The position numbers were made by a program, and so were the translations under genes. 38,967 nucleotides of DNA, from the NCBI GenBank assembly GCA_946415045.1, contig CAMKRB010000001.1, forward strand, positions 1 to 38,967, in the 5' to 3' direction. The number at the start of each line of letters is the position of its first letter. Positions within the stretch are counted from its first letter, which is position 1. The notes beneath the pieces were generated by a model that saw nothing but the letters and a program-made list of their open reading frames with translations, had not been told where the DNA came from and made no database searches. Source of the DNA: an uncultured Myxococcales bacterium (lineage in GTDB: Bacteria; Myxococcota_A; Bradymonadia; UBA4248). Below, in pieces: positions 3,276 to 18,409 of the stretch.

Positions 3276-3565
3276 TGCAACATCCTTTTAGCGCGATGCG
3301 TTCAAGGCGTCAAAGGAATAGCGTAAAAAGTGATGCTTTGTTATTGGCTCTGTTTAACGAACGTGGATAGGAAAAGGCACAGTCGCTTGCTTTATGGCCG
3401 AGGGCAGCGAGCGACGATCCGCGAGTGCGCATTGCCCCAACCCGATGCCCGGTGTTCAACGCTCTTGGCCTGTTTTGTATATGTATTTGGTATGAAAGCC
3501 ATGTCTATACAGATTAAACATCGCTTTGTGATTTGAGTGTAAAGCTGCCCCAGATGCAGGAGAAC

Positions 3566-5458
3566 TCAGAGTTTTAGCGAGCTTGATTTCTTATTGTTGG
3601 ACAATGCCTGCATGATGTAAGCGGATGCCGTGGCCATTTCGGCTTCGTTTGTGAGTTTGAGGAGTTTTCTTAGTGCATTGTCGGTCAGGAACCGATATTT
3701 AAGCAGCTCGATGAGTCTGGTTTCTGCGCGATTTTGAATGAGTGTTTCTGCCAGTTTTGCAGCGACGCGTCTGAGGTAATCCGCGCAGAAACATTTATCC
3801 CCCTGGCGATGATAGAGGTCCAATGCAAAGAGCTGCTTTTCTTCGGTATTCGTGATGCCTTCGAAGCATTCCTCATATTCGTCGAAATCGAATTCCGGCT
3901 GATTCCAGGCCATATCGATATGCATTCGTGACTCGGTGTTCAAGTTTTGCGGAATATCGATATATTCAATACTTCCGTTGATTCTGTTCATGGTGATATC
4001 GGAACCGAGCCAGAGCATATTGTTGTATATTGTGTTCATTTTATTGCTGGGAGGAATGGCTTCGATGGCGCATATCAATCCGCGGGCAGTCCCTTCGGTG
4101 GCGGTCACATGTTTTGTACCAGCGATGGCTCCGCGTCCGATCTGTATAACAGATGGGGGAAGTGTGCAGTGTTTCAGCATGGAATTCAAACCGTAGTTCA
4201 AATCCATGGTATAGCTGGCGAATGCATATTCACCGATATATTCGACGAAATCCGGAATGTTGATTTCTGAGAGATCGCATCCAAAGAAAGCGTAGCTGCC
4301 GATATGCCGCAGTTTGGGCGGAAACTGAATGTTATTGCCAAGTGCTTTGCAATTTTCGAAGACGCCTTCTTTAACGAAATCCGAGGTGCCTGGAATATCG
4401 GTGATGTTATTGGAAAAGCGGATAGTTTTGAGCTTTTTGCAATTATAGAATGATGCCTGTCCGAGTTTTCGTACAGAATCAGGCATGATGATTTCTTCGA
4501 GGCACGTACAGTTTTGGAATGCCGAGGTATGTATGGATTCGACGCCATCCGGGATGTGATAGAATTTGTCTGGTTTTCCGGCAGGGTAGAACAGGAGCTT
4601 TTTCATATCGGCCGAAAACAGGACGCCATTGACTGTGCAGTATTTGTTGCTTGAAGAACGCAGTTCAAAATATTCGAGTGCTTCGCAGGATCGAATCGTG
4701 GTGAGGTTGATCTTGTTCGGGGTTTTTAGAAGGATGTATCTGTGCAGTTGTTTGCTGAGTGAACTGATGCAGGACAGCGGGAGAGGACGCGGTGTAATGA
4801 TTTCTCTGAGATTCAGGCTTGTCATGGAAAAAGCGCTGCTATCGAATGCTTTGACATTATCAGGAATAGTGAGAGAGGGCTCGGGGGTATAGCTTCGATA
4901 CAGTGTGTTGCCAGCCAGCAGAAGCGGCACTTTCTGATTCATCCACATAGAGTCCTGAAACGCATACTTTTCTAAGGTTACATCCGGGTTTTCGAATATG
5001 ATTTCGAGGCAGAGGGAATTTTGGAATGCATAGTCACCGATCTTTTGAATTTCTTTTGGAATGGTGCACGATCGCATCATGCCTGCATTAAAAACATATT
5101 CAAGTGTGCCTTTTCGAATCAGCATCGAACCCATTGCCTGATAATATTTATTTTGGGGATCTACCAGAATTTCGCTGAGGTTTGGAAAAACGCAGTTGTT
5201 TGTCTGAATTCTTTGAACAAAGGCAGGAATATGCAAACGTTTCACGTTATAATGGAATTTATTCGGGTTGTTGTAGAAGTTTTCCGGAACCAGCTTTACC
5301 TCTGGTGTTATCAGAGAACCGGCATAATCCGGCGGAATCCACAGATCGTCAGCAACCGAGCGAAAACCAGTGATCGTATAGGTGGTATGATTCCTATTCC
5401 ATCCCCATTCATTGATACAAAAGATGGATCCCTTGTATTCGTATAAAATATCAGCCAT
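3566..5458 (-). CDS. Cytoplasmic leucine-rich-repeat protein (BspA-type LRR_5 repeats) with a C-terminal helical domain
   Basis: The ORF was trimmed to the ATG at 5458 (MADILYEY...). That start overlaps the upstream stop as ATGGCTGA, which suggests translational coupling. It carries repeated x-I-P-x-x-V-x-x-I-G-x-x-A-F-x-x-C units, e.g. IPDGVESIHTSAFQNCTCLEEI, MPDSVRKLGQASFYNCKKLKTI and IPDFVEYIGEYAFAS. There is no N-terminal hydrophobic signal. Confidence 0.8.
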   Translation of the reverse strand: MADILYEYKGSIFCINEWGWNRNHTTYTITGFRSVADDLWIPPDYAGSLITPEVKLVPENFYNNPNKFHYNVKRLHIPAFVQRIQTNNCVFPNLSEILVDPQNKYYQAMGSMLIRKGTLEYVFNAGMMRSCTIPKEIQKIGDYAFQNSLCLEIIFENPDVTLEKYAFQDSMWMNQKVPLLLAGNTLYRSYTPEPSLTIPDNVKAFDSSAFSMTSLNLREIITPRPLPLSCISSLSKQLHRYILLKTPNKINLTTIRSCEALEYFELRSSSNKYCTVNGVLFSADMKKLLFYPAGKPDKFYHIPDGVESIHTSAFQNCTCLEEIIMPDSVRKLGQASFYNCKKLKTIRFSNNITDIPGTSDFVKEGVFENCKALGNNIQFPPKLRHIGSYAFFGCDLSEINIPDFVEYIGEYAFASYTMDLNYGLNSMLKHCTLPPSVIQIGRGAIAGTKHVTATEGTARGLICAIEAIPPSNKMNTIYNNMLWLGSDITMNRINGSIEYIDIPQNLNTESRMHIDMAWNQPEFDFDEYEECFEGITNTEEKQLFALDLYHRQGDKCFCADYLRRVAAKLAETLIQNRAETRLIELLKYRFLTDNALRKLLKLTNEAEMATASAYIMQALSNNKKSSSLKL

Positions 5459-6947
5459 TGATGAGTGCCTCGATTTCCTGTTTGAGACTATGCTCCTGAT
5501 CGTAGACGAGCAATTCCTTATTGTACTGGTAGTAATCGTCGGAACCCCAGCGGGAGATGAATCCTGTTGCATAGAGATTCATGGTGAGTTCTGTGACGAA
5601 GAGTACCATTTCCTGTCCATTGTTCCAGCATTCCCGGATGAACCTGAATGTATTGGCCAGACAGGATGCAGCTGCATCGATTTGTGATTCGTGAGCTTTG
5701 GTGCGTTTTGCAAAATCGGTCTGAATGGATTTGAACTTGTTTTTGTTAATCTTACTGATGGATTCGGTGTATTCGGACAGCAACAGAATACACCCTGTGT
5801 CAATGCTTTTTTGTTCGCGGTCCAGATTGCCGGCTTCTTCGCGCTGATGAATGGCACAGGATATTTCCTCGATATTACCGGAGATCATCGAAAGCAGTGT
5901 ATCGTCGCTTGCATTTTTTTTGATTTTGCGCAGGATCTTTACTGTTTTCTGGAGGATTTCTTCGTCGAGAATACAATCCCGAAATCGCTCGCATAACAAA
6001 TCCCGGAACAGGGAAATCACCGAAATCCGTTCATCAAAGGATGCATCTTTTGCCTTTTGAACGGCATCTGCCTGTGGTTTACCGGCAAGGATATCCTCAA
6101 TGGCGTAGTTGTTGCGGTATTTCTGGAAAAGAGAATAGAAAGCGGCAAAGCGTCGTGCGACATCAGGGACAGTGATGTATTGCATGATGAGTGCAGAGGT
6201 GACTTCAAAGTTATGATTCTCATATCCTCGCAAAGCTGCAGACAGGTCTTCCCAACCTCGCGCGGTGATATATTGTTTTCCTTCTATCGTTGTTGAAATC
6301 TGGTAGAAGCAGGTTTCATTGAGATCGAGAAATGCAAGGATAGCAGGGTGCAGGGAGGCGGAAGATGCATATTGTTTCCAGACATGATAATTCTCTTCAA
6401 CAGTCATATACTTGAGTCGATCGAGCGTCACCACATCAAATTCCTTAACAGATTTATTGTATTGCGGTGGATTGCCGGCGGTGACGATGACCCAGCCCTG
6501 CGGCACCTGTTCATTTCCAAATCTTTTGTATTGCAGGAACAGGAGCATCGAAGGCGCGAGTGTTTCAGATACACAGTTGATTTCGTCGAGAAACAGAATG
6601 CCCTCGGATCTTCCAGATTTTTCCATCACTTCATATATCGATGCAATGATTTCACTCATGGTATATTCAGAGACAGTACATTTTCGACCGGCATATTCCT
6701 TTTCGGTCAGATAGGGGAGTCCGATGGCACTTTGGCGAGTGTGGTGTGTCATGGAATAGCTCACGAGCGCGATATCCATTTCGGCGGCGATTTGTTCCAT
6801 GATGGCGGTTTTGCCGATACCGGGGGCGCCGATCAGGAAAATGGGGCGCTGGCGTACAATCGGAATGATGTATTCGCCGGATTTGTCCTTTTCGAGATAC
6901 AGCTCGATCGTATGCTTGATTTCAGTTTTGGCTTCTCTGATGTTCAT
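5451..6947 (-). CDS. MoxR-like (AAA_5-type) AAA+ ATPase with a roughly 300-aa C-terminal helical extension
   Basis: 498 aa. Walker A is GAPGIGKT and Walker B is ILFLDEIN. The ATG at 6947 lies 3 nt after the stop of the VWA gene. Confidence 0.85.
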   Translation of the reverse strand: MNIREAKTEIKHTIELYLEKDKSGEYIIPIVRQRPIFLIGAPGIGKTAIMEQIAAEMDIALVSYSMTHHTRQSAIGLPYLTEKEYAGRKCTVSEYTMSEIIASIYEVMEKSGRSEGILFLDEINCVSETLAPSMLLFLQYKRFGNEQVPQGWVIVTAGNPPQYNKSVKEFDVVTLDRLKYMTVEENYHVWKQYASSASLHPAILAFLDLNETCFYQISTTIEGKQYITARGWEDLSAALRGYENHNFEVTSALIMQYITVPDVARRFAAFYSLFQKYRNNYAIEDILAGKPQADAVQKAKDASFDERISVISLFRDLLCERFRDCILDEEILQKTVKILRKIKKNASDDTLLSMISGNIEEISCAIHQREEAGNLDREQKSIDTGCILLLSEYTESISKINKNKFKSIQTDFAKRTKAHESQIDAAASCLANTFRFIRECWNNGQEMVLFVTELTMNLYATGFISRWGSDDYYQYNKELLVYDQEHSLKQEIEALING

Positions 6948-6950
6948 GGT

Positions 6951-8510
6951 TTATTCTTCTCTCCAGTAGGCTTTGAGAGCCCATGCAGGAACACGACATT
7001 CTTCGTATTTGTCGAGAAATACAAATGCGGTTTTGTAGTCTGTTGGATGATTCGGATAAGTTCCCCAGCCGTCTGTGAAGTAAATCAGACCGCAGAGATT
7101 CGAAAAAGCGCCTTCGGTTCTGAGTTTGTCGACATATCGGAAAACAGGGCGAAAATCTGTGCCGCCCTGACCTTTCACTTTGAAATCCTTTGCATATGCT
7201 TCGATGTCCTGGAGTGTACGGATGGCAATATCTTCCTGTATCGCAGCATCACACTGGATGATGTGTATATTGACCGCAGATGTAAACATTTCGGTCGATT
7301 TGAGAATACTATAGGTCTTGTTAAGAAATTTCTGCACGAGCTCGCCGCTGGTCGATCCGGAAGTATCAATGGCAATCACAAACTCACGTATTTGCATGAC
7401 TTCACGGTATTCGAGCGGTTCGATGAGCAATTTCCTGCGTCCCGGCAAACCGAGGCCATACGTATAATAGATGACGTCGAATTCGTCCGGATCGATCATC
7501 ATTCTTTCTTCCATGACGGCAAACTGCCGCAGAAAGTCTGAATAGTCCATATCATCGCGGGTGAGCCACGCGATATTTTTTTCGAGCAGTCCGCGTTCGC
7601 TGCCTTGACATGAAAAGGATTCCATATCGACCATAATTCTGCGGGCGGCATCTTTCCATTCTTCTGCTTTTGGGGTGTTCAGGCTCATATGGGGCAATCG
7701 ATGTATCGTGGATTGCCCGGATGTGCCGTTTCCCATCAGATCATTGTTTTCCGAATCGGATGCGCGTTGCGGATTCTGCTCGCTATGATCTTTTTCATCC
7801 TCTGATTCAGATGATTCGGATGAATGATCGCTGCCAGTTTCCTTTGGGGCGCTGAGATTTGAAGCACTTCCGTACAAATGATCATCAGCCTGTTGTTCGG
7901 TTTCTTCACTGCATTCTGAGTCGTTTTCGTTGTCGTCTTCGTTGTTCCCGTGATGATTGGATGATGTATCCGGCATTGCTATCCAAAGATGATCGTCGAA
8001 TTTAAACAGATTGTGCAGCTGATCGATATCGGTATCTGCCGCATGAATTCTGAGGTACTTGAGGACTTCAGGCAGCGTGAGCAAATCAACGGATTGTTGT
8101 ATTTTCTTTACAAACAGAATCCGTTCATTATCCAATGGTGTCGCAAAATCGCCGAATTGTGCGGAGATCGCCGCTTCGATGGTGATATCGCAAGCCAGTT
8201 CAGCGAGTTTGGGTTCGGCCGTTTGTGGAACAAACGGATGCAGATAGATGCAGTGAAACAGTGAATGCAGGTATCGGCGTATTTCAAGCGTCGAATCGTT
8301 ATGGAACCGCCGGAGCCAGTCTTTTGGATCGTAATACAGGCTGCATCCATCCGTGCCGAAAACCCCGGGAATCTCGTCGCATTCATTTGGAACGAGGCGA
8401 TAGATGGCGGGTTCGAGATAGCGGTATTGCAGGAACAGCCGGTTTCGGATGTGCCGAAGCAGTTTCCCGGCAAGTGCGCTGATTTCGCTATGAGCAGAGC
8501 TGACGTTCAA
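6951..8510 (-). CDS. DUF2201-like protein: N-terminal metallopeptidase-like domain, acidic low-complexity linker, C-terminal VWA domain
   Basis: 519 aa. The MIDAS-type motif is AIDTSGSTS (DxSxS). The N-terminal region resembles the putative metallopeptidase domain that accompanies this VWA family, but reads HSLFH instead of HExxH. The Ser/Glu/Asp-rich linker is SSESSESEDEKD. The only in-frame start is TTG at 8510, so the start is uncertain. Confidence 0.75.
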   Translation of the reverse strand: MNVSSAHSEISALAGKLLRHIRNRLFLQYRYLEPAIYRLVPNECDEIPGVFGTDGCSLYYDPKDWLRRFHNDSTLEIRRYLHSLFHCIYLHPFVPQTAEPKLAELACDITIEAAISAQFGDFATPLDNERILFVKKIQQSVDLLTLPEVLKYLRIHAADTDIDQLHNLFKFDDHLWIAMPDTSSNHHGNNEDDNENDSECSEETEQQADDHLYGSASNLSAPKETGSDHSSESSESEDEKDHSEQNPQRASDSENNDLMGNGTSGQSTIHRLPHMSLNTPKAEEWKDAARRIMVDMESFSCQGSERGLLEKNIAWLTRDDMDYSDFLRQFAVMEERMMIDPDEFDVIYYTYGLGLPGRRKLLIEPLEYREVMQIREFVIAIDTSGSTSGELVQKFLNKTYSILKSTEMFTSAVNIHIIQCDAAIQEDIAIRTLQDIEAYAKDFKVKGQGGTDFRPVFRYVDKLRTEGAFSNLCGLIYFTDGWGTYPNHPTDYKTAFVFLDKYEECRVPAWALKAYWREE

Positions 8511-8625
8511 TAATTACTAACCTGTTGATTCGTGTGGCAGGGATCCCATTTATCCCCCTTTCATGCCCACAATCACTCGCTTTGTGATGGCTGTCAATCA
8601 TTATTGATGTCTGGTATGATGATTG

Positions 8626-12833: not shown

Positions 12834-14519
12834 CTAATCGTCTTCTGCAATGACGATACAATTCACGAGCTGTGGATCGGGCAAATCCTCGGTTTCCGGC
12901 CAGTTTTCGTTGACAAGCGCCTGCAGCTGTGATGCGAAGCGTCTGAGTGCAATTTCGCTTGATTCGGGAATGTTCGATTTGAACAATGGCCGGATTTCGC
13001 TGAATTGTATGGCTTTTAATACATCTGCACGATGCGGAAGCGATTTGGTTGTAAATACATTCCAGGCGTCGTCGGCTTTGAGATATTTACGTGTTAAAAA
13101 GGTTACAGCGACATTATCGAAGTTGATATTTTCGACGCCCTGAATGACATCGTGTGTATAAGCCAGCAGTGAGATGTCGTCTTTTGTTTTATGCAATCCC
13201 TCGCCATAGAAGAGTTCGCGGGTGGCGACATCGGCAATGACTGCAGCACCTTCGCGGATATCGTCGGCGGAGATGAATGGCGTGAGCGTGGATTCGGCGG
13301 GTCTTGGCCGTTCCTGCAGCATACCGGCGATGGCGTCGCGCTGCGCATTGGTGAGCAGGCTGGTCTGGGAGTCTTCGATAATCGACAGATGACCGCGGGA
13401 AACGAGCAACTTCGCTTTATGCTGCAATTCAAGCGTGACGTTGTAACCGAGCGTGCAAAGGCGATGAAGCGGCACATGATGGAGAATTTGAATGGCCAAA
13501 GCGTCATCGCGTCCGGAGGCATACTCAAGACCGAGGTTAATGTTGGCCACGGCGAGGATCATGCTGTCGTCGAATCCTTCGGTCTCGTGGGGCTGGAAAC
13601 CGTCGAATGTGGCGATTTGCTGTGCGACGGCATAGAGCTGCACGCGGATCTGGTCGAGATTTGCGACGTGTTGCAGCATAGATTCGAAGTAGCATCCAGC
13701 GGTTTTGGATTCGTCGAGACGTGCTATTGCGGTATCGAGATGGGCGCTGGAAGGGTAGGGTTTGACGTAGAGATCTGCGTCGGTGAAATGACGGATTTCA
13801 TCGACTTCGCGGGAAACCGAGACTTTGGCAAAGATGGCGGCCGCTTCATCGCGGGGCATATAGCCGTATTCACGGATGCGTTCGGTGCGGAATCGATAGG
13901 CATTTTCTTCGAGATCGCTTTCCATTTCCCAGTGCATGCTTTCAAGGGTAGACCAGGCTTGTTCGACGCCGAGCACCGCATAAAGCCGGTCGATGAGCTG
14001 TCTCAGCAACTCGGCCTTGTCGGGATCTTCGGGATAGGCAACCCAGTAGCTGAAATCGGGGGTCTGGGCGACATTCTGGCCGGCATCTTCGGGGATATCG
14101 ACTTCATCATCCTTGTTTTCCGAGACATAGAGCTGCACATTGCGGTGCAGATACAGCGCCATAATTTCGGGATCGAGTTCGCGCCAGAATTCGGCAAATT
14201 TTTCGTCGGGCAGGGCGAGCATTTGTTCGACCCATGGGGCGATCTGGTCATCCTGCATCTGGTCGCCGCGCCAGATGTCGAGATCCAGACAGTTTTGAAC
14301 CTGTTCGGACGAAGCATAGGCCATGAGCACACCGGCATCACCTGGTCCAACGGCGTGATAGAGATCGTAGAAAGCCATTGGGGAGAGCGCCTGAACTGCA
14401 GCAGAAGTATCTTTGGCATCGAGCAGCGCTTCCATTTCTTTTTTTGGCTGGATGGCACGCGACTGCGCATCCGCGATGTGAAACAGTGCACTAAAAGACT
14501 GGTCGCCGGATTTAGGCAT
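12834..14519 (-). CDS. Conserved-looking hypothetical protein, acidic and helical (family not recognised with confidence)
   Basis: 561-aa ORF with natural amino-acid composition. The ATG at 14519 overlaps the cmk stop by 8 nt (ATGCCTAA). The 455-aa antisense ORF looks like an artefact. Confidence 0.7.
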   Translation of the reverse strand: MPKSGDQSFSALFHIADAQSRAIQPKKEMEALLDAKDTSAAVQALSPMAFYDLYHAVGPGDAGVLMAYASSEQVQNCLDLDIWRGDQMQDDQIAPWVEQMLALPDEKFAEFWRELDPEIMALYLHRNVQLYVSENKDDEVDIPEDAGQNVAQTPDFSYWVAYPEDPDKAELLRQLIDRLYAVLGVEQAWSTLESMHWEMESDLEENAYRFRTERIREYGYMPRDEAAAIFAKVSVSREVDEIRHFTDADLYVKPYPSSAHLDTAIARLDESKTAGCYFESMLQHVANLDQIRVQLYAVAQQIATFDGFQPHETEGFDDSMILAVANINLGLEYASGRDDALAIQILHHVPLHRLCTLGYNVTLELQHKAKLLVSRGHLSIIEDSQTSLLTNAQRDAIAGMLQERPRPAESTLTPFISADDIREGAAVIADVATRELFYGEGLHKTKDDISLLAYTHDVIQGVENINFDNVAVTFLTRKYLKADDAWNVFTTKSLPHRADVLKAIQFSEIRPLFKSNIPESSEIALRRFASQLQALVNENWPETEDLPDPQLVNCIVIAEDD

Positions 14520-15186
14520 GGCTGGACTCCAGGACTTTTTTCTGAATCAGGTCGATAAGCGCCTGACAGGATTGTTCGAAATCGAGGTTTGATGTGTCGA
14601 GCACGATCGCATCTTCGCACTGGATGAGCGGGGATTCTTTGCGCGTGAATTCGGTTTCATCGCGTTCTTTGATCTGTCGGACGACCTCATCGAAATTGAA
14701 TTTTTCGCCTTTGGCTTCGAATTCCTTCATGCGGCGCATTGCGCGGGCCTCGGCTGTTGCTGTGTAATAGACCTTGAGATCGGCGTCGGGAAAGACGACA
14801 GAACCGATATCGCGTCCTTCGACGATGACGTTGGCCGCATGGCCCAGACGGCGCTGAATGCCGAGCAGCTCACGGCGAACCTCGGCCATTGGCGCAATAC
14901 GGTTCACGCACTGGGTCGTTTCGAATGTGCGGATTTCTGTCGAAACATCGCGATCACCAATGAAGACTTTTTGGCCGGATTTTGAAGCGACAAAGCGGAT
15001 ATCCAGATTCTGTGCGATTTTTCCACATTCAACGGGGTTGTCGGCGACGCCCTTTTCCATCGCGATAAGCGCGACACAACGATAGATGGCACCTGTATCC
15101 AACAGGCTCCAGTTCAGGCGTTTCGCCGATTCGCGGCAAACTGTACTTTTTCCGGCCCCACTGGGGCCATCCACTGCGATAATCAT
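14512..15186 (-). CDS. cmk: Cytidylate kinase
   Basis: The ORF was trimmed to the ATG at 15186, which is preceded by GAGGAGAG. The P-loop is VDGPSGAGKST, followed by LLDTGAIYR. These and the roughly 224-aa length are typical of Cmk. Confidence 0.88.
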   Translation of the reverse strand: MIIAVDGPSGAGKSTVCRESAKRLNWSLLDTGAIYRCVALIAMEKGVADNPVECGKIAQNLDIRFVASKSGQKVFIGDRDVSTEIRTFETTQCVNRIAPMAEVRRELLGIQRRLGHAANVIVEGRDIGSVVFPDADLKVYYTATAEARAMRRMKEFEAKGEKFNFDEVVRQIKERDETEFTRKESPLIQCEDAIVLDTSNLDFEQSCQALIDLIQKKVLESSHA

Positions 15187-15335: not shown

Positions 15336-15902
15336 ATGTCACTGATCACCAGAAAATACCGCCTGAATACGAATCCGCTCTGGCATCCGGACATCAAACA
15401 GCCCGAAGTCACAGTGACCTGTACCAAGAATTTCGACGATCTCGAGTTTGTTTTTATGGTGGCTGAGCCTGAGGAATGCTTCAGACTGGCGTGCCGGAAT
15501 GACGGGGATCCATGCTGGCAGGATTCATGTGTTGAGGTTTTTATCCATTCGCCATCTCTCGGAGGCTATTTCAATTTCGAGACGAATGCTGCCGGAAAAA
15601 CGCTGGCAGAATTCGGAACTGGCCGACACAATCGCGTTCAGTTCCAGCCAGCAGAATACCATTCGCTGCATCGCAACATACTGATGCCGGTGTCTCAGCG
15701 TCCCGACGGGATGATGCAATGGGCCGTTCAAATCCGCGTTTCACTTGAGAAACTGCACCTGTCGCCAATCGAACCCGTTGTCGGTAATTTGTATAAATGT
15801 GGATCGGCTGCACAGATTCCTTCGTATTTATGCGCATTTCGCGTTGACACCCCTGCCCCCGATTTTCACAGACCCGAGTTTTTCAGGAATTTATTTTTGT
15901 AA
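15336..15902 (+). CDS. Small cytoplasmic protein resembling carbohydrate-binding family 9 / DOMON-like proteins
   Basis: 188 aa with an AGGAG RBS and no signal peptide. The product call rests only on remembered similarity (motif [10 protein letters not shown]...YFNFE.N). Its stop lies 2 nt before the copA ATG. Confidence 0.55.
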
Positions 15903-15904
15903 AA

Positions 15905-18409
15905 ATGAGACAATACAACATCACAGGTATGAGCTGCGCTGCATGCAGCGCGAGGATTGAAAAAGCGGTTCAAAGCGTTCCTGGGGTTACATCTTGTGCG
16001 GTCAACCTGCTGACGCACTCGATGGGTATCGAAGGTACTGCAACGGATACGGATATCATCAGGGCTGTCACGGATGCAGGATACGGCGCAGCGCCAGTAT
16101 CTGCAGACAAATCCGGTGACGCTGCGGACGCAGATGAACTCCGGGATCGCGAAACCCCGAAACTCCGAAAACGTCTGATTCTATCCGTCATTTTCTTATG
16201 CTTCCTGTTGTATATCACCATGGGAACGATGGCGGCACAGATGGGATGGATGCCAGTTGGCAACTGGCCGCTGCCCGGGTTTCTCAGTGATGATGTGTAT
16301 ATGGGGCTCACCCAGTGTCTGCTAGCGACTATCATCCTGATTATCAACCGCAAATTCTTTACGAATGGCATCAAAGGATTGATTCATCTTGCGCCGAATA
16401 TGGATACGCTGGTGTCGCTTGGCGCAGGAGCTGCCTATATTTACAGTATCTGGGTGCTTATTGCTGCAATCGGAGGATCCGGAGCTTTGCCGGGAACGGC
16501 ACCTGATTACTATTTCGAGTCGGCTGCGATGATTGTGACGCTCATCACCGTTGGCAAACTGCTTGAATCCCATGCAAAAGGCAAAACGACAGATGCCTTG
16601 AAAAGCCTGATGAAATTGCGCCCCAATACGGCCACCATTTTGGCCGGCAACAATGAAAAGCAGGTTGAAATTGCAGAAGTTCAAATCGGCGATATCGTGG
16701 TTGTGCGTCCCGGAGAGGCGATTCCGGTGGATGGCCGGGTGCGGAGCGGTGAAAGTGCGGTGAACGAATCTGCGATCACCGGAGAAAGCATTCCGGTCGA
16801 CAAAGCACCCGGCAGTCTCGTTGCGGCTGCGACGATCAATCAAACGGGATTGCTGCATATCGAAGTGACCAGGGTTGGAGAAGATACGACGCTGGGGCAG
16901 ATTATAAGGCTGGTGCGAGATGCGGCAGCGACAAAGGCGCCGGTGGCCAAAATCGCCGATAAAGTGGCCGGGGTCTTTGTTCCTGCGGTCATTGTCATCG
17001 CAATGGTGACTTTTGTTATATGGATGATTGTTGGTCAAACACTGAGTTTTTCGCTGGCCCGTGCAATATCGGTTTTGGTGATTAGCTGCCCGTGTGCACT
17101 TGGACTGGCGACACCTGTAGCCATTGTGGTTGGCAGCGGTCTTGGTGCGCGCAATGGTATTTTGTTCAAAACGGCAAGTGCGCTCGAAGCCGCGGGAAAA
17201 CTCAAAACAATAGCGCTCGACAAAACCGGCACGATCACTTCGGGGGAACCCAAAGTAACCGATATCCTGCCATCCGAAGGGTATTCCGAGTCTGAACTTG
17301 TTGCATTGGCTGCGTCGATCGAATCGGGGAGCGAGCATCCTCTTGCGCGGGCTATTGTTCAAAAGGCTGCAGAACAAGGCGTTTCCGCATTTGAGGTCAC
17401 GGGGTTCAGCGCGTTGCCGGGAAAAGGCGTGACAGCCAAAGCTGACGACAAAGCATTATATGGTGGCAATGCCGCTTTTATTGGGGAGCAGCTGGAGATA
17501 TCCAAGAATTACCTGGAACAGGCGGATGATTTGTCGAAATCCGGTAAAACGCCGTTACTGTTTGCCAGAGGCGATGATTTTATCGGAATGATTGCAGTTG
17601 CTGACACGCTGCGCAGTGACAGCCCCAAAGCCATCGATGCGCTTCGTGCGATGGGACATGATGTGGTGATGATCACCGGTGACAATGCAAAGACCGCAAA
17701 CAGCATTGCCAAACAAGCCGGAATTGATCGCGTGATCGCCGGGATGATGCCGGAGGAAAAAGCACACGCCATTGAGGAAATGGGCAAAAATGGCGCGACT
17801 GCGATGGTTGGTGATGGTATCAATGATGCGCCTGCGCTGACGACGGCAACTGTTGGCATTGCGATTTCCTCCGGGACAGATGTCGCCATGGATGCTGCGG
17901 ATATCGTGATTACCAAAAACAGCTTATGTGATGTGGCGGCTGCGATAAGACTGAGTCGCGCCACACTTCGCAATATTCATCAGAATCTGTTCTGGGCCTT
18001 TTTCTATAATATACTTTGTATTCCGCTGGCTGCGGGCGTGTTTATTCCAGTTACCGGCTGGGCGCTTCGTCCGGTTTTTGGTGCAGCAGCCATGGGACTT
18101 TCCAGCTTTTTTGTCGTTGCAAATGCGCTGCGGCTGAATCTGTTTGATATCTATAAAGCAGACAAGGACAGCAGTCAGGATACTATTCAAAACCATACAA
18201 ATTCTATCATTGTAAAAATCGACGGCATGCATTGTGAACATTGTGAAGCGACGGTGAAAAAGGCACTTGAGGCCGTTCCGGGAATCAAGGTCATCCGTGT
18301 CAGCCATAAGAAGAACAATGCGGAGCTTCAATCGGATTCGGATGTGTCTGAAGAAGCGATTCGGAAAGCCGTGGAAAGCGTACATTTTGTATTTGGCGGG
18401 ATACAATAG
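15905..18409 (+). CDS. copA: Cu(I)-translocating P1B-type ATPase with N-terminal and C-terminal HMA domains
   Basis: 834 aa. The N-terminal HMA motif is [12 protein letters not shown]. Other motifs are TGES, transmembrane CPC ([11 protein letters not shown]), [15 protein letters not shown] and M-x2-SS. A second HMA domain ([11 protein letters not shown]) sits at the C-terminus. Confidence 0.92.

Follow-up and report, generated by a model that had tools for sequence, protein, structure and literature searches.

A conserved trio of genes for a VWA-like protein, an AAA+ ATPase and a cytoplasmic leucine-rich repeat protein: a candidate remodelling machine of Clostridia-type genomes

Introduction

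What is a leucine-rich repeat (LRR) protein without an export signal doing in one gene unit with an AAA+ ATPase and a VWA-domain protein? Do the three belong together, or did their genes come to lie side by side by chance? These questions are raised by a stretch of 38,967 nucleotides (nt) from an uncultured Myxococcales bacterium (GenBank assembly GCA_946415045.1, contig CAMKRB010000001.1), here called the window, in which three consecutive minus-strand genes encode a VWA-like protein, an AAA+ ATPase and an LRR protein. The original prediction, made from the letters of the window, described these genes as an AT-rich cassette and proposed a defence or conflict module, in which the LRR protein would serve as sensor or client of a MoxR/VWA machine.

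AAA+/VWA pairs have been described as dedicated remodellers, and some predicted conflict systems are built around them. A fixed cytoplasmic partner of the BspA-type LRR class was not found described for them: a full-text literature search turned up no account of the combination AAA+/VWA/cytoplasmic LRR and nothing relevant on DUF2201, COG3864 or PF09967. Here we show that the trio is a single conserved, co-inherited module in Clostridia-type genomes. Our preferred reading, which we consider probable though well short of certain, is that the three proteins make up an AAA+/VWA remodelling machine complete in itself, in which the LRR protein is an exchangeable adaptor or client.

Results

The three genes form one conserved module

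In the window, the cassette is flanked by glnA (glutamine synthetase) and by the kor genes (2-oxoacid:ferredoxin oxidoreductase subunits with POR and TPP domains); here the domain annotation agrees with what had been proposed. Three nucleotides (acc) separate the TAA stop codon of the VWA-like gene from the ATG of the ATPase gene, and the TGA stop of the ATPase gene overlaps the ATG of the LRR gene as ATGGCTGA (5458-5451). The open reading frames, the short gap and the overlap all confirm the predicted packing of the genes into one unit (Table 1). The VWA-like gene opens with TTG, a start codon kept in the orthologous locus L175, where the entire glnA-trio-kor arrangement is retained at 85-92% nucleotide identity.

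Is this arrangement peculiar to one locus? The ATPase belongs to a family of proteins of about 500 amino acids (aa), which comprises more than 8000 clusters at 90% identity with E<1e-10. In all six relatives that were examined, ranging from 88% down to 52% identity, genes for a DUF2201 protein and an LRR_5 protein adjoin the ATPase gene. The 88% relative occupies the same kor-glnA locus; the other five lie in unrelated contexts, and the genes are ordered VWA-AAA-LRR or LRR-VWA-AAA. A scan of species-representative genomes returned at least 514 matching stretches, and 80 GTDB species loci were analysed, nearly all of them labelled Lachnospiraceae, Oscillospiraceae, Acutalibacteraceae, Eubacterium, Clostridium and similar. 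Named carriers of the module include [Clostridium] polysaccharolyticum DSM 1801 (L043) and Pseudoflavonifractor capillosus (L056). When all open reading frames within 6 kb of the ATPase gene were clustered, the shared families were the ATPase itself (80/80 loci), the VWA-like protein (74/80) and an LRR-type partner (70/80, represented by 99 genes). No fourth conserved gene emerged, the next real family being present in at most 12 of the 80 loci. The order VWA-AAA-LRR prevails with 41 loci, next to LRR-VWA-AAA (7), VWA-LRR-AAA (4) and others.

Could the LRR gene have come to lie beside the AAA/VWA pair by chance, LRR_5 genes being abundant in these genomes? Gut Firmicutes are indeed rich in such genes, with 4145 matches at E<=1e-20, mainly long surface proteins. 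Against this explanation stands the recurrence of an LRR-type gene at the loci just described, which no other gene family approaches. Moreover, the partners are a distinct subfamily marked by a C-terminal region, here called the handle, that is confined to the C-terminus of LRR_5 proteins, and in the window the overlapping stop and start codons indicate translational coupling. Chance adjacency is effectively refuted, and we leave it next to no probability. The trio is not confined to a position between kor and glnA, and its LRR gene is tied to the AAA/VWA pair elsewhere, in several gene orders and in unrelated contexts; the linkage proposed from a single locus thus holds well beyond it.

Is the cassette set apart by its base composition? 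The G+C content (GC) of the LRR, ATPase and VWA-like genes is 0.447, 0.461 and 0.478, as compared with 0.561 for korA, 0.589 for korB and 0.519 for glnA. Taken together the trio stands at 0.461 and the remaining window at 0.527. At third codon positions its GC is 0.51-0.53, and the next lowest values among the window genes checked are those of a P-type ATPase (0.525) and a GDSL gene (0.533). The AT-richer block seen in the original prediction is genuine, but the dip is small. The nearest relatives (L175, L001 and L003) show it as well; the Lachnospiraceae versions do not, and there the AAA/VWA pair averages 1.4 points above its own flanks. Low GC is a trait of the window lineage and not a property of the system.

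Table 1. Features of the trio and its flanks in the window. AF2, AlphaFold2; pLDDT, predicted local distance difference test; pTM, predicted template modelling score.
Feature	Coordinates	Strand	Evidence
Gene 1, zincin-like N-domain/acidic linker/C-terminal VWA, 519 aa	6951..8510	-	Pfam DUF2201 46.1 bits, DUF2201_N 29.5 bits; PHROG 1314 E 1.4e-28
Degenerate zincin motif H82-S-L-F-H86-C-I-Y-L-H91	8238..8267	-	alignment of 80 relatives
Acidic Ser-rich low-complexity linker, about aa 176-295, 119 aa, net charge -19	7626..7985	-	sequence
VWA domain, intact MIDAS D382-T-S384-G-S386 (nt 7353-7367), T451, D480	6981..7379	-	Pfam DUF2201 aa 378-510
Gene 2, AAA+ ATPase (AAA_5 type), 498 aa	5451..6947	-	Pfam AAA_5 34.5 bits, AAA 33.4 bits; AF2 pLDDT 80.4
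Walker A G40-APGIGKT47; Walker B I117-LFLDE122	6807..6830; 6582..6599	-	motifs in ATPase
ATPase C-terminal helix-rich extension, aa 187-498	5454..6389	-	AF2 secondary structure
Gene 3, cytoplasmic BspA-type LRR protein, 630 aa	3566..5458	-	Pfam LRR_5 166 bits; AF2 pLDDT 89.7, pTM 0.78
LRR C-terminal handle, aa 456-620	3599..4093	-	AF2 model
LRR flexible tail ...NNKKSSSLKL-COOH	3569..3598	-	AF2 pLDDT 56 over last 10 residues
12-nt direct repeat ATCACAAAGCGA, upstream copy	8577..8588	-	within L175-conserved block (CAAAGCGAGTGATTGTG, beside TTGACAG)
12-nt direct repeat ATCACAAAGCGA, downstream copy	3521..3532	-	34 nt past LRR stop codon

The VWA-like protein keeps its metal ligands and has lost a catalytic residue

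The product of the first gene passes the gathering thresholds of both Pfam families that make up its assignment (PF13203 plus PF09967), DUF2201 (26.4 bits) and DUF2201_N (23.2 bits). The residues of its metal-ion-dependent adhesion site (MIDAS), D382, S384, S386, T451 and D480, are invariant in 80/80 relatives, and the DTSGS motif that had been singled out is present in the window protein. Does the N-terminal domain have the makings of a protease? Three histidines with the spacing H-x3-H-x4-H (H82, H86 and H91) are invariant in all 78 sequences, among the 80 aligned, that have a residue there. In these 78 sequences position 83, the place of the catalytic glutamate in an HExxH motif, is occupied by I, T, M, S or V and never by E; the window protein reads HSLFH. 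DUF2201 proteins encoded beside MoxR-like ATPases on phage contigs retain HE[VI][ML]HCxxxH, and because these relatives keep HExxH, the loss of the glutamate is a derived trait of the LRR-linked clade.

The two domains are joined by a linker that varies widely. Its tabulated length among the relatives ranges from 21 to 114 aa, and blastn comparison of the window with L175 finds no similarity across the linker region (7672-7983). The VWA domain ends nine residues ahead of the stop codon, and no effector domain is fused C-terminally to it. PHROG 1314, which matches the VWA-like protein over its full length, carries the label 'HNH endonuclease'. Its members on phage contigs have HExxH and a DxSxS MIDAS, and the label looks like an error.

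The ATPase carries a long helical extension

Both Walker motifs of the ATPase are invariant in 24 relatives, and so is the stretch S63-P78, which takes the position of the helix-2 insert in the AF2 model. Two hairpins of this model, aa 81-92 and about 142-150, lie at the sites expected for the MoxR helix-2 insert and the pre-sensor-1 beta-hairpin; the pLDDT is low there. About 30 residues precede the AAA+ core. The C-terminal part is all-helical in the model (aa 229-498) and finds no Pfam match at E<=0.01; at E<=0.1 it finds only DUF7945 (E 0.039, under the cut-off). PHROG 1297 aligns to aa 33-293 only (E 2.2e-38), and the phage ATPases of the family, which are shorter, lack the extension. A PDB sequence search with the ATPase returned only Midasin and YjoB, both weak, and PHROG 249 ('porphyrin biosynthesis') is likewise a weak match. 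At one locus (L006:9522-11012, minus strand) a second, different ATPase of the AAA_5/DUF815 type (496 aa) stands directly after the trio ATPase in convergent orientation.

The LRR partner combines a variable solenoid with a constant handle and tail

What kind of protein is the third partner? The AF2 model of the LRR protein shows a beta solenoid up to about residue 455, an EGTARGL junction, a beta-hairpin (486-502), a five-helix bundle (508-620) and a flexible tail. The original prediction had described a helical C-terminal domain of about 170 aa. The size stands, as residues 456-630 form a non-LRR region of about 175 aa; the helical part of it amounts to only some 115 aa. Foldseek with the full model finds only LRR solenoids, the best of which are the BspA-type structures 4gt6, 4cp6 and 4h09, and is uninformative on the handle; the C-terminal region has no Pfam match at E<=0.1. 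None of the three window proteins has a signal peptide or membrane segment (maximum Kyte-Doolittle 19-residue mean 0.8-1.26). The LRR protein therefore lacks a hydrophobic segment for export, as had been predicted, and among the 99 LRR partners only two have a signal-like N-terminal segment.

How widespread is the handle? A word-indexed homologue search with the handle alone gave a single protein and was superseded by an alignment query and an exhaustive phmmer search. The latter, run with the handle against 1.84 billion representatives, found 99 proteins, most of them 570-660 aa long, with the handle at the C-terminus in nearly all. LRR families are the only Pfam content of the handle-bearing proteins that were scanned (74/74). 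Within this family the C-terminus ends in hydrophobic-x-hydrophobic in 71 of the 74, with Leu as last residue in 61, and the terminal consensus is K-K-x-[ST]-[FL]-[RK]-L-COOH. Such hydrophobic-x-hydrophobic ends are found in 51 of the 99 LRR partners from the 80 loci, versus 53 of 381 neighbouring genes.

The number of LRR_5 repeats per partner ranges from two to more than ten. Short partners of about 300 aa dominate in Lachnospiraceae loci. They have two or three LRR_5 repeats (41-86 bits, with a cut-off of 27.7 bits), a different-looking helical domain and an acidic-aromatic tail that ends in hydrophobic-x-Leu (FFAGLSL, AFSAFEL, FDFSL). In these short-type systems the linker of the VWA-like protein is 23 aa long; long-type systems combine a basic tail with a long acidic linker.

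Two partners, P0123 (1029 aa) and P0140 (716 aa, truncated where its contig stops), carry the LRR-plus-handle unit as a tandem duplication, with two EGTA.GL / AWN / handle segments each. At five loci from Oscillospiraceae and Clostridia metagenome-assembled genomes (L023, L025, L044, L084 and L092), three to eight LRR_5 genes are arrayed around the AAA/VWA pair. In many of the additional copies a YAKENNIPF-like end takes the place of the hydrophobic-x-Leu tail, and two copies have a signal-like N-terminus; they may be ordinary surface LRR proteins.

The LRR partner diverges fastest

Are the three genes under selection, and do they evolve alike? Between the window and the syntenic locus L175, the ratio of nonsynonymous to synonymous substitution rates (dN/dS) is 0.01-0.03 for kor and 0.04 for glnA, 0.09 for the ATPase, 0.19 for the LRR protein and 0.20 for the VWA-like protein. 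All three genes of the trio are therefore under purifying selection, and the LRR and VWA-like proteins evolve fast. The comparison of locus pairs extends this picture. At 83.5% ATPase identity the VWA-like proteins are 78% and the LRR partners 62% identical, and at 64% ATPase identity the LRR partners are down to 38%. Across locus pairs the LRR partner is the fastest-diverging component. Its variable portion is the LRR region, in repeat number as well as in sequence, whereas handle and tail form the constant portion.

Genomic context

Was the cassette acquired recently as a horizontal island at the kor-glnA locus, bounded by short repeats and telling us little about the biology of its host? 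The GC dip, recurring in L175, L001 and L003, would fit such an origin. So would an exact 12-nt repeat, ATCACAAAGCGA, whose two copies lie in the intergenic flanks of the trio and form the outer ends of the span 3521-8588. A further observation is a second locus, L174, which is 96.7% identical to the window over korAB, with similarity stopping at window position 3320. Upstream of its korA (L174:1-9900), genes for a ClpB-like protein (998 aa), an amino-acid permease, a PNP-family nucleoside phosphorylase and a methyltransferase replace the trio and glnA. L174 thus presents housekeeping genes and no empty kor-glnA junction, and an island between kor and glnA finds no counterpart here. The locus is a synteny difference that points to rearrangement more than to a simple gain or loss of the trio.

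The repeats were tried as an insertion scar and rejected. The L174 breakpoint (3320) does not coincide with the repeat at 3521, and conservation in L175 is poor: despite the close similarity of that locus, the sequence around the downstream copy cannot be aligned, and only part of the upstream copy is conserved. Chance alone should produce about one pair of 12-mer repeats in 5.6 kb. The analysis found eleven further families of short repeats, and a third copy with one mismatch lies inside the ATPase gene (5677-5688). There is no integrase, transposase or tRNA nearby; scans of the whole window with Rfam and for tRNA genes gave no match. The purifying selection on all three genes also speaks against a passenger island. 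We judge a recent island very doubtful.

How is the trio expressed? A scan for sigma-70 promoters and terminators called fewer sites than in shuffled sequence and none on the trio strand upstream of the VWA-like gene. A conserved block, GACATCAA..TTGACAG..CAAAGCGAGTGATTGTG, lies ahead of the VWA start at 8560-8612 and aligns to L175:4812-4870; it may serve the trio as promoter or operator. A leader mini-ORF of ten codons (8516-8548, minus strand; MGSLPHESTG) follows a Shine-Dalgarno sequence, AAAGGGGGA, that is strong, and 8 nt separate its end from the TTG that opens the VWA-like gene. It is not conserved in L175, was rejected as a candidate and is probably non-functional.

Does the module keep the company of defence genes or of mobile elements? 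With PADLOC-DB v2, nothing was found for the VWA-like and LRR proteins, and the ATPase matched only IetA (22 bits) over the P-loop region. For 38 loci the two nearest genes on each side were collected. Among the resulting 121 neighbours no family recurs. They are a mixture of housekeeping genes, such as those for RNase R, iPGM, HisRS, alcohol dehydrogenase, CarD, ABC transporters and sigma factors. Some five to eight of them match defence models, and Cas1, BrxP, IetA and Uma2 occur as isolated cases. The sole clear defence-island context that we observed is on an IMG/VR contig (L095), where a module with two LRR genes lies between brxA/brxB (53-1253) and a GmrSD-type restriction gene (15392-17122). 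A plasmid search with the ATPase gave no match. Full-length ATPase relatives occur on 4 of 2.9 million IMG/VR contigs, and also on seven short unannotated 'Bacteriophage sp.' contigs from human faecal virome.

These data bear directly on the proposal that the trio defends against phages or other mobile elements, with the LRR protein sensing an invader protein and the AAA+/VWA pair giving the immune output, as in vWA-MoxR ternary systems. Several features are what such a role would lead one to expect: an LRR partner that evolves fastest, multiple LRR paralogues at several Oscillospiraceae loci, a variable genomic context, the one locus between BrxA/BrxB and GmrSD and the sporadic defence genes elsewhere. 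GC below that of the flanks in the window clade and the near-identical kor locus L174, which has no trio beside kor, point the same way. Yet the PADLOC match is weak and generic to P-loops, and the nearest neighbours are housekeeping genes with no recurrent defence family. The proteins contain no nuclease, protease, TIR, pore or other effector domain, and the zincin is without its catalytic Glu. There is no plasmid match and next to none in viruses, and in other genomes the GC of the pair is not below that of the flanks. The type of third component, the effector fusion and the gene order of ternary systems are not found either. For the defence role put forward in the original prediction these results are unfavourable; it is one possibility, and a minor one.

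Several further genes were seen around the trio. Genes of the AAA-ATPase_like/PDDEXK_9 type lie within a few kb of it in three of the five non-syntenic contexts inspected (L003:19152-20705, L006:2381-4099 and 12846-14564, L011:10328-11734), and in L006 and L011 a HipA toxin gene and IS605 TnpB genes are found near the trio. The syntenic relative on a GCA_016648615.1 contig has an additional gene between glnA and the VWA-like gene, encoding a 152-aa SLT protein (lytic transglycosylase); the window has none there. Elsewhere in the window, at 12834-14519, a full-length DUF6178 protein (265 bits) is encoded beside cytidylate kinase, and it is also found in the contig of a relative.

Discussion

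How might the three proteins work together? By analogy with NorQ/NorD and CbbQ/CbbO, the ATPase would form a ring that grips the VWA domain. Hydrolysis of ATP would then pull or twist the acidic linker, and the force would be passed on to the zincin domain that has lost its glutamate. The LRR protein may dock to this assembly through its conserved handle and tail, for which three sites are candidates: the MIDAS, which would bind a carboxylate; the peptide groove of the zincin, a domain catalytically dead but still in possession of its metal ligands; and the helical extension of the ATPase. The variable LRR surface would be the exchangeable element that recognizes a target, so that the protein acts as an adaptor in the manner of the LRRs of F-box-LRR or NLR proteins. 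Alternatively, the LRR protein could itself be the client that is remodelled. We favour the adaptor because the pairing of a constant docking module with an LRR surface of high variability is how a substrate receptor is built. From the fast diversification and the expansion in copy number of the LRR partner, we lean towards the recognition of variable proteins.

What speaks against a remodelling machine of this kind? Ten of the 80 loci have no detected LRR partner, several of them on truncated contigs. The long-type and short-type handles may or may not be homologous (hhalign, E 0.061), and a complementarity of charge between partner tail and VWA linker is at most hinted at (rho -0.24, p 0.054, not corrected for phylogeny). 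The kinship of the ATPase with the MoxR family, on which the analogy draws, is only weakly supported. That it is an AAA+ protein with a VWA/MIDAS partner stands as predicted; its assignment as MoxR-type does not follow from its bpMoxR score of 24.5 bits, below the Pfam cut-off of 27 bits, nor from Foldseek, where the model gives generic AAA+ matches (dynein, FtsH, Vps4, ClpX) and NorQ ranks 19-21, all with E>=4e-4. The contacts between ATPase, VWA-like protein and LRR protein are suggested by analogy, and the data fit adaptor and client alike. All these points weigh against the remodelling machine as we describe it, which we hold to be probable and no more.

The client alternative deserves closer inspection. 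Here the AAA+/VWA pair would be a chaperone for the maturation, assembly or disassembly of LRR_5 proteins, with the tail as recognition tag for the ATPase; one aim might be to bring them by a non-classical route to the cell surface, the usual place of action of BspA-type LRR proteins. MoxR/VWA pairs typically serve one client, such as NorB, Rubisco or LdcI (PMC9976466; see also PMC4660213, PMC6987120). Other LRR_5 proteins are surface-located, the NCBIfam adhesin model HupY/LrrG matches in part, and the closest structures are those of cell-surface LRR proteins. The LRR tail is basic and hydrophobic, and in this it resembles the C-terminal recognition tags of AAA+ unfoldases. On the other hand, the LRR protein has no signal peptide, sortase motif, S-layer domain or cell-wall-binding domain, and the conserved neighbourhood contains no transporter gene. 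A constant handle combined with two to more than ten repeats also fits a variable recognition surface better than a client of fixed fold. We therefore regard the client role as rather unlikely.

To return to the adaptor, the same features could be read more boldly, as a widespread cytoplasmic LRR surveillance in gut Clostridia. Diversifying LRR receptors would pass foreign or aberrant proteins, by way of handle and tail, to the pseudo-protease/VWA adaptor and the AAA+ motor for dismantling or sequestration. We put this forward as a conjecture that is more likely wrong than right by a wide measure. If true, it would amount to a family of bacterial LRR innate-immune receptors with an ATP-driven output that needs no effector.

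Why does the module matter? It is common in Lachnospiraceae, Oscillospiraceae and their relatives, which are dominant in the mammalian gut, and it would give a context to thousands of genes now called 'hypothetical'. It would also assign an intracellular role to a class of LRR proteins that have passed for adhesins of the cell surface until now. Concrete sites for mutations that probe the assembly are the conserved tail, the invariant MIDAS and the dead zincin with its metal ligands.

Comparison with known systems

How does the trio relate to systems that have been described? The nearest functional models are the MoxR pairs NorQ/NorD, CbbQ/CbbO and RavA/ViaA, which likewise have a gene for an AAA_5-type ATPase beside, and translationally coupled to, a gene for a VWA protein with intact MIDAS. 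In the case of NorQ/NorD, one copy of the VWA protein inserts a finger of its VWA domain into the pore of the AAA+ hexamer, and its C-terminus touches the ring. As ATP is hydrolysed, the linker between the VWA domain and the remainder of NorD is twisted and stretched, and the bound target is thereby remodelled (PMC13036017, PMC9976466). The VWA-like protein of the window shares the layout of NorD, with an N-terminal domain, a flexible linker and a C-terminal VWA domain. It differs in that the N-terminal domain is a Glu-less zincin. Unlike the ATPases of these pairs, that of the window has 498 aa with a helical C-terminal extension of about 300 aa and falls under the MoxR Pfam cut-off, and the conserved third gene encodes a cytoplasmic LRR protein and no metalloenzyme client.

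A division of labour between motor, bridging and third subunit is also the architecture of the chelatases BchI-BchD-BchH and CobS-CobT-CobN. These couple an AAA+ motor to two further subunits: one acts as a bridge and contains an acidic linker and a VWA domain with MIDAS, the other is large and binds the target. In contrast, the trio has no chelatase substrate subunit and no tetrapyrrole context, and its third subunit is an LRR solenoid. That solenoid agrees in repeat type and fold with the BspA-type LRR_5 surface proteins (PcpA, 4cp6; FAEPRAA2165_01021, 4gt6; TpLRR, 6mlx; Foldseek E 4e-12 to 1e-5). Unlike these, the LRR protein of the window is devoid of signal peptide, anchoring and Ig-like domains, has a unique handle and tail, and is obligately linked to the AAA/VWA pair.

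The vWA-MoxR ternary systems share the three-gene logic of ATPase, vWA protein and system-specific third part, and there, too, the ATPase evolves more slowly than the other two components. They follow the strict order third component-MoxR-vWA, with variable effectors fused C-terminally to the vWA domain (Kaur et al. 2020 PMC7159879; 2021 PMC8195603). Their third components are VMAP, iSTAND, iSTAND2, TERNS3, FtsH or a beta-propeller (PMC7159879, PMC8195603). An LRR protein is absent from this list, and the combination in the window differs from the described systems as had been suspected: the third protein consists of LRR_5 repeats and handle and has no VMAP or STAND match, and the vWA protein is without a C-terminal effector fusion. 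The order is VWA-AAA-LRR in the window and not fixed across loci. The ~30 residues before the AAA+ core are too short for the N-terminal region with the motifs WxhapG and PsWRxa, which were not searched for as such. The hosts are gut Clostridia, whereas those of the ternary systems are multicellular actinobacteria or cyanobacteria.

By descent, the closest relatives are pairs of a DUF2201 protein and an ATPase in phages and bacteria (PHROG 1314 and 1297; the cyanophage ATPases are annotated 'MoxR-like ATPase'). Their proteins are homologous to those of the window (E 1.4e-28 and 2.2e-38) and encoded by adjacent genes, with the same MIDAS and the same His spacing, H-x3-H-x4-H. In contrast to the trio, the phage pairs keep HExxH and lack an LRR partner, and their proteins are shorter, with about 380-430 aa and 300-360 aa. 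Relative to them, the clostridial clade has lost the glutamate, whereas linker, ATPase extension and LRR gene are gains.

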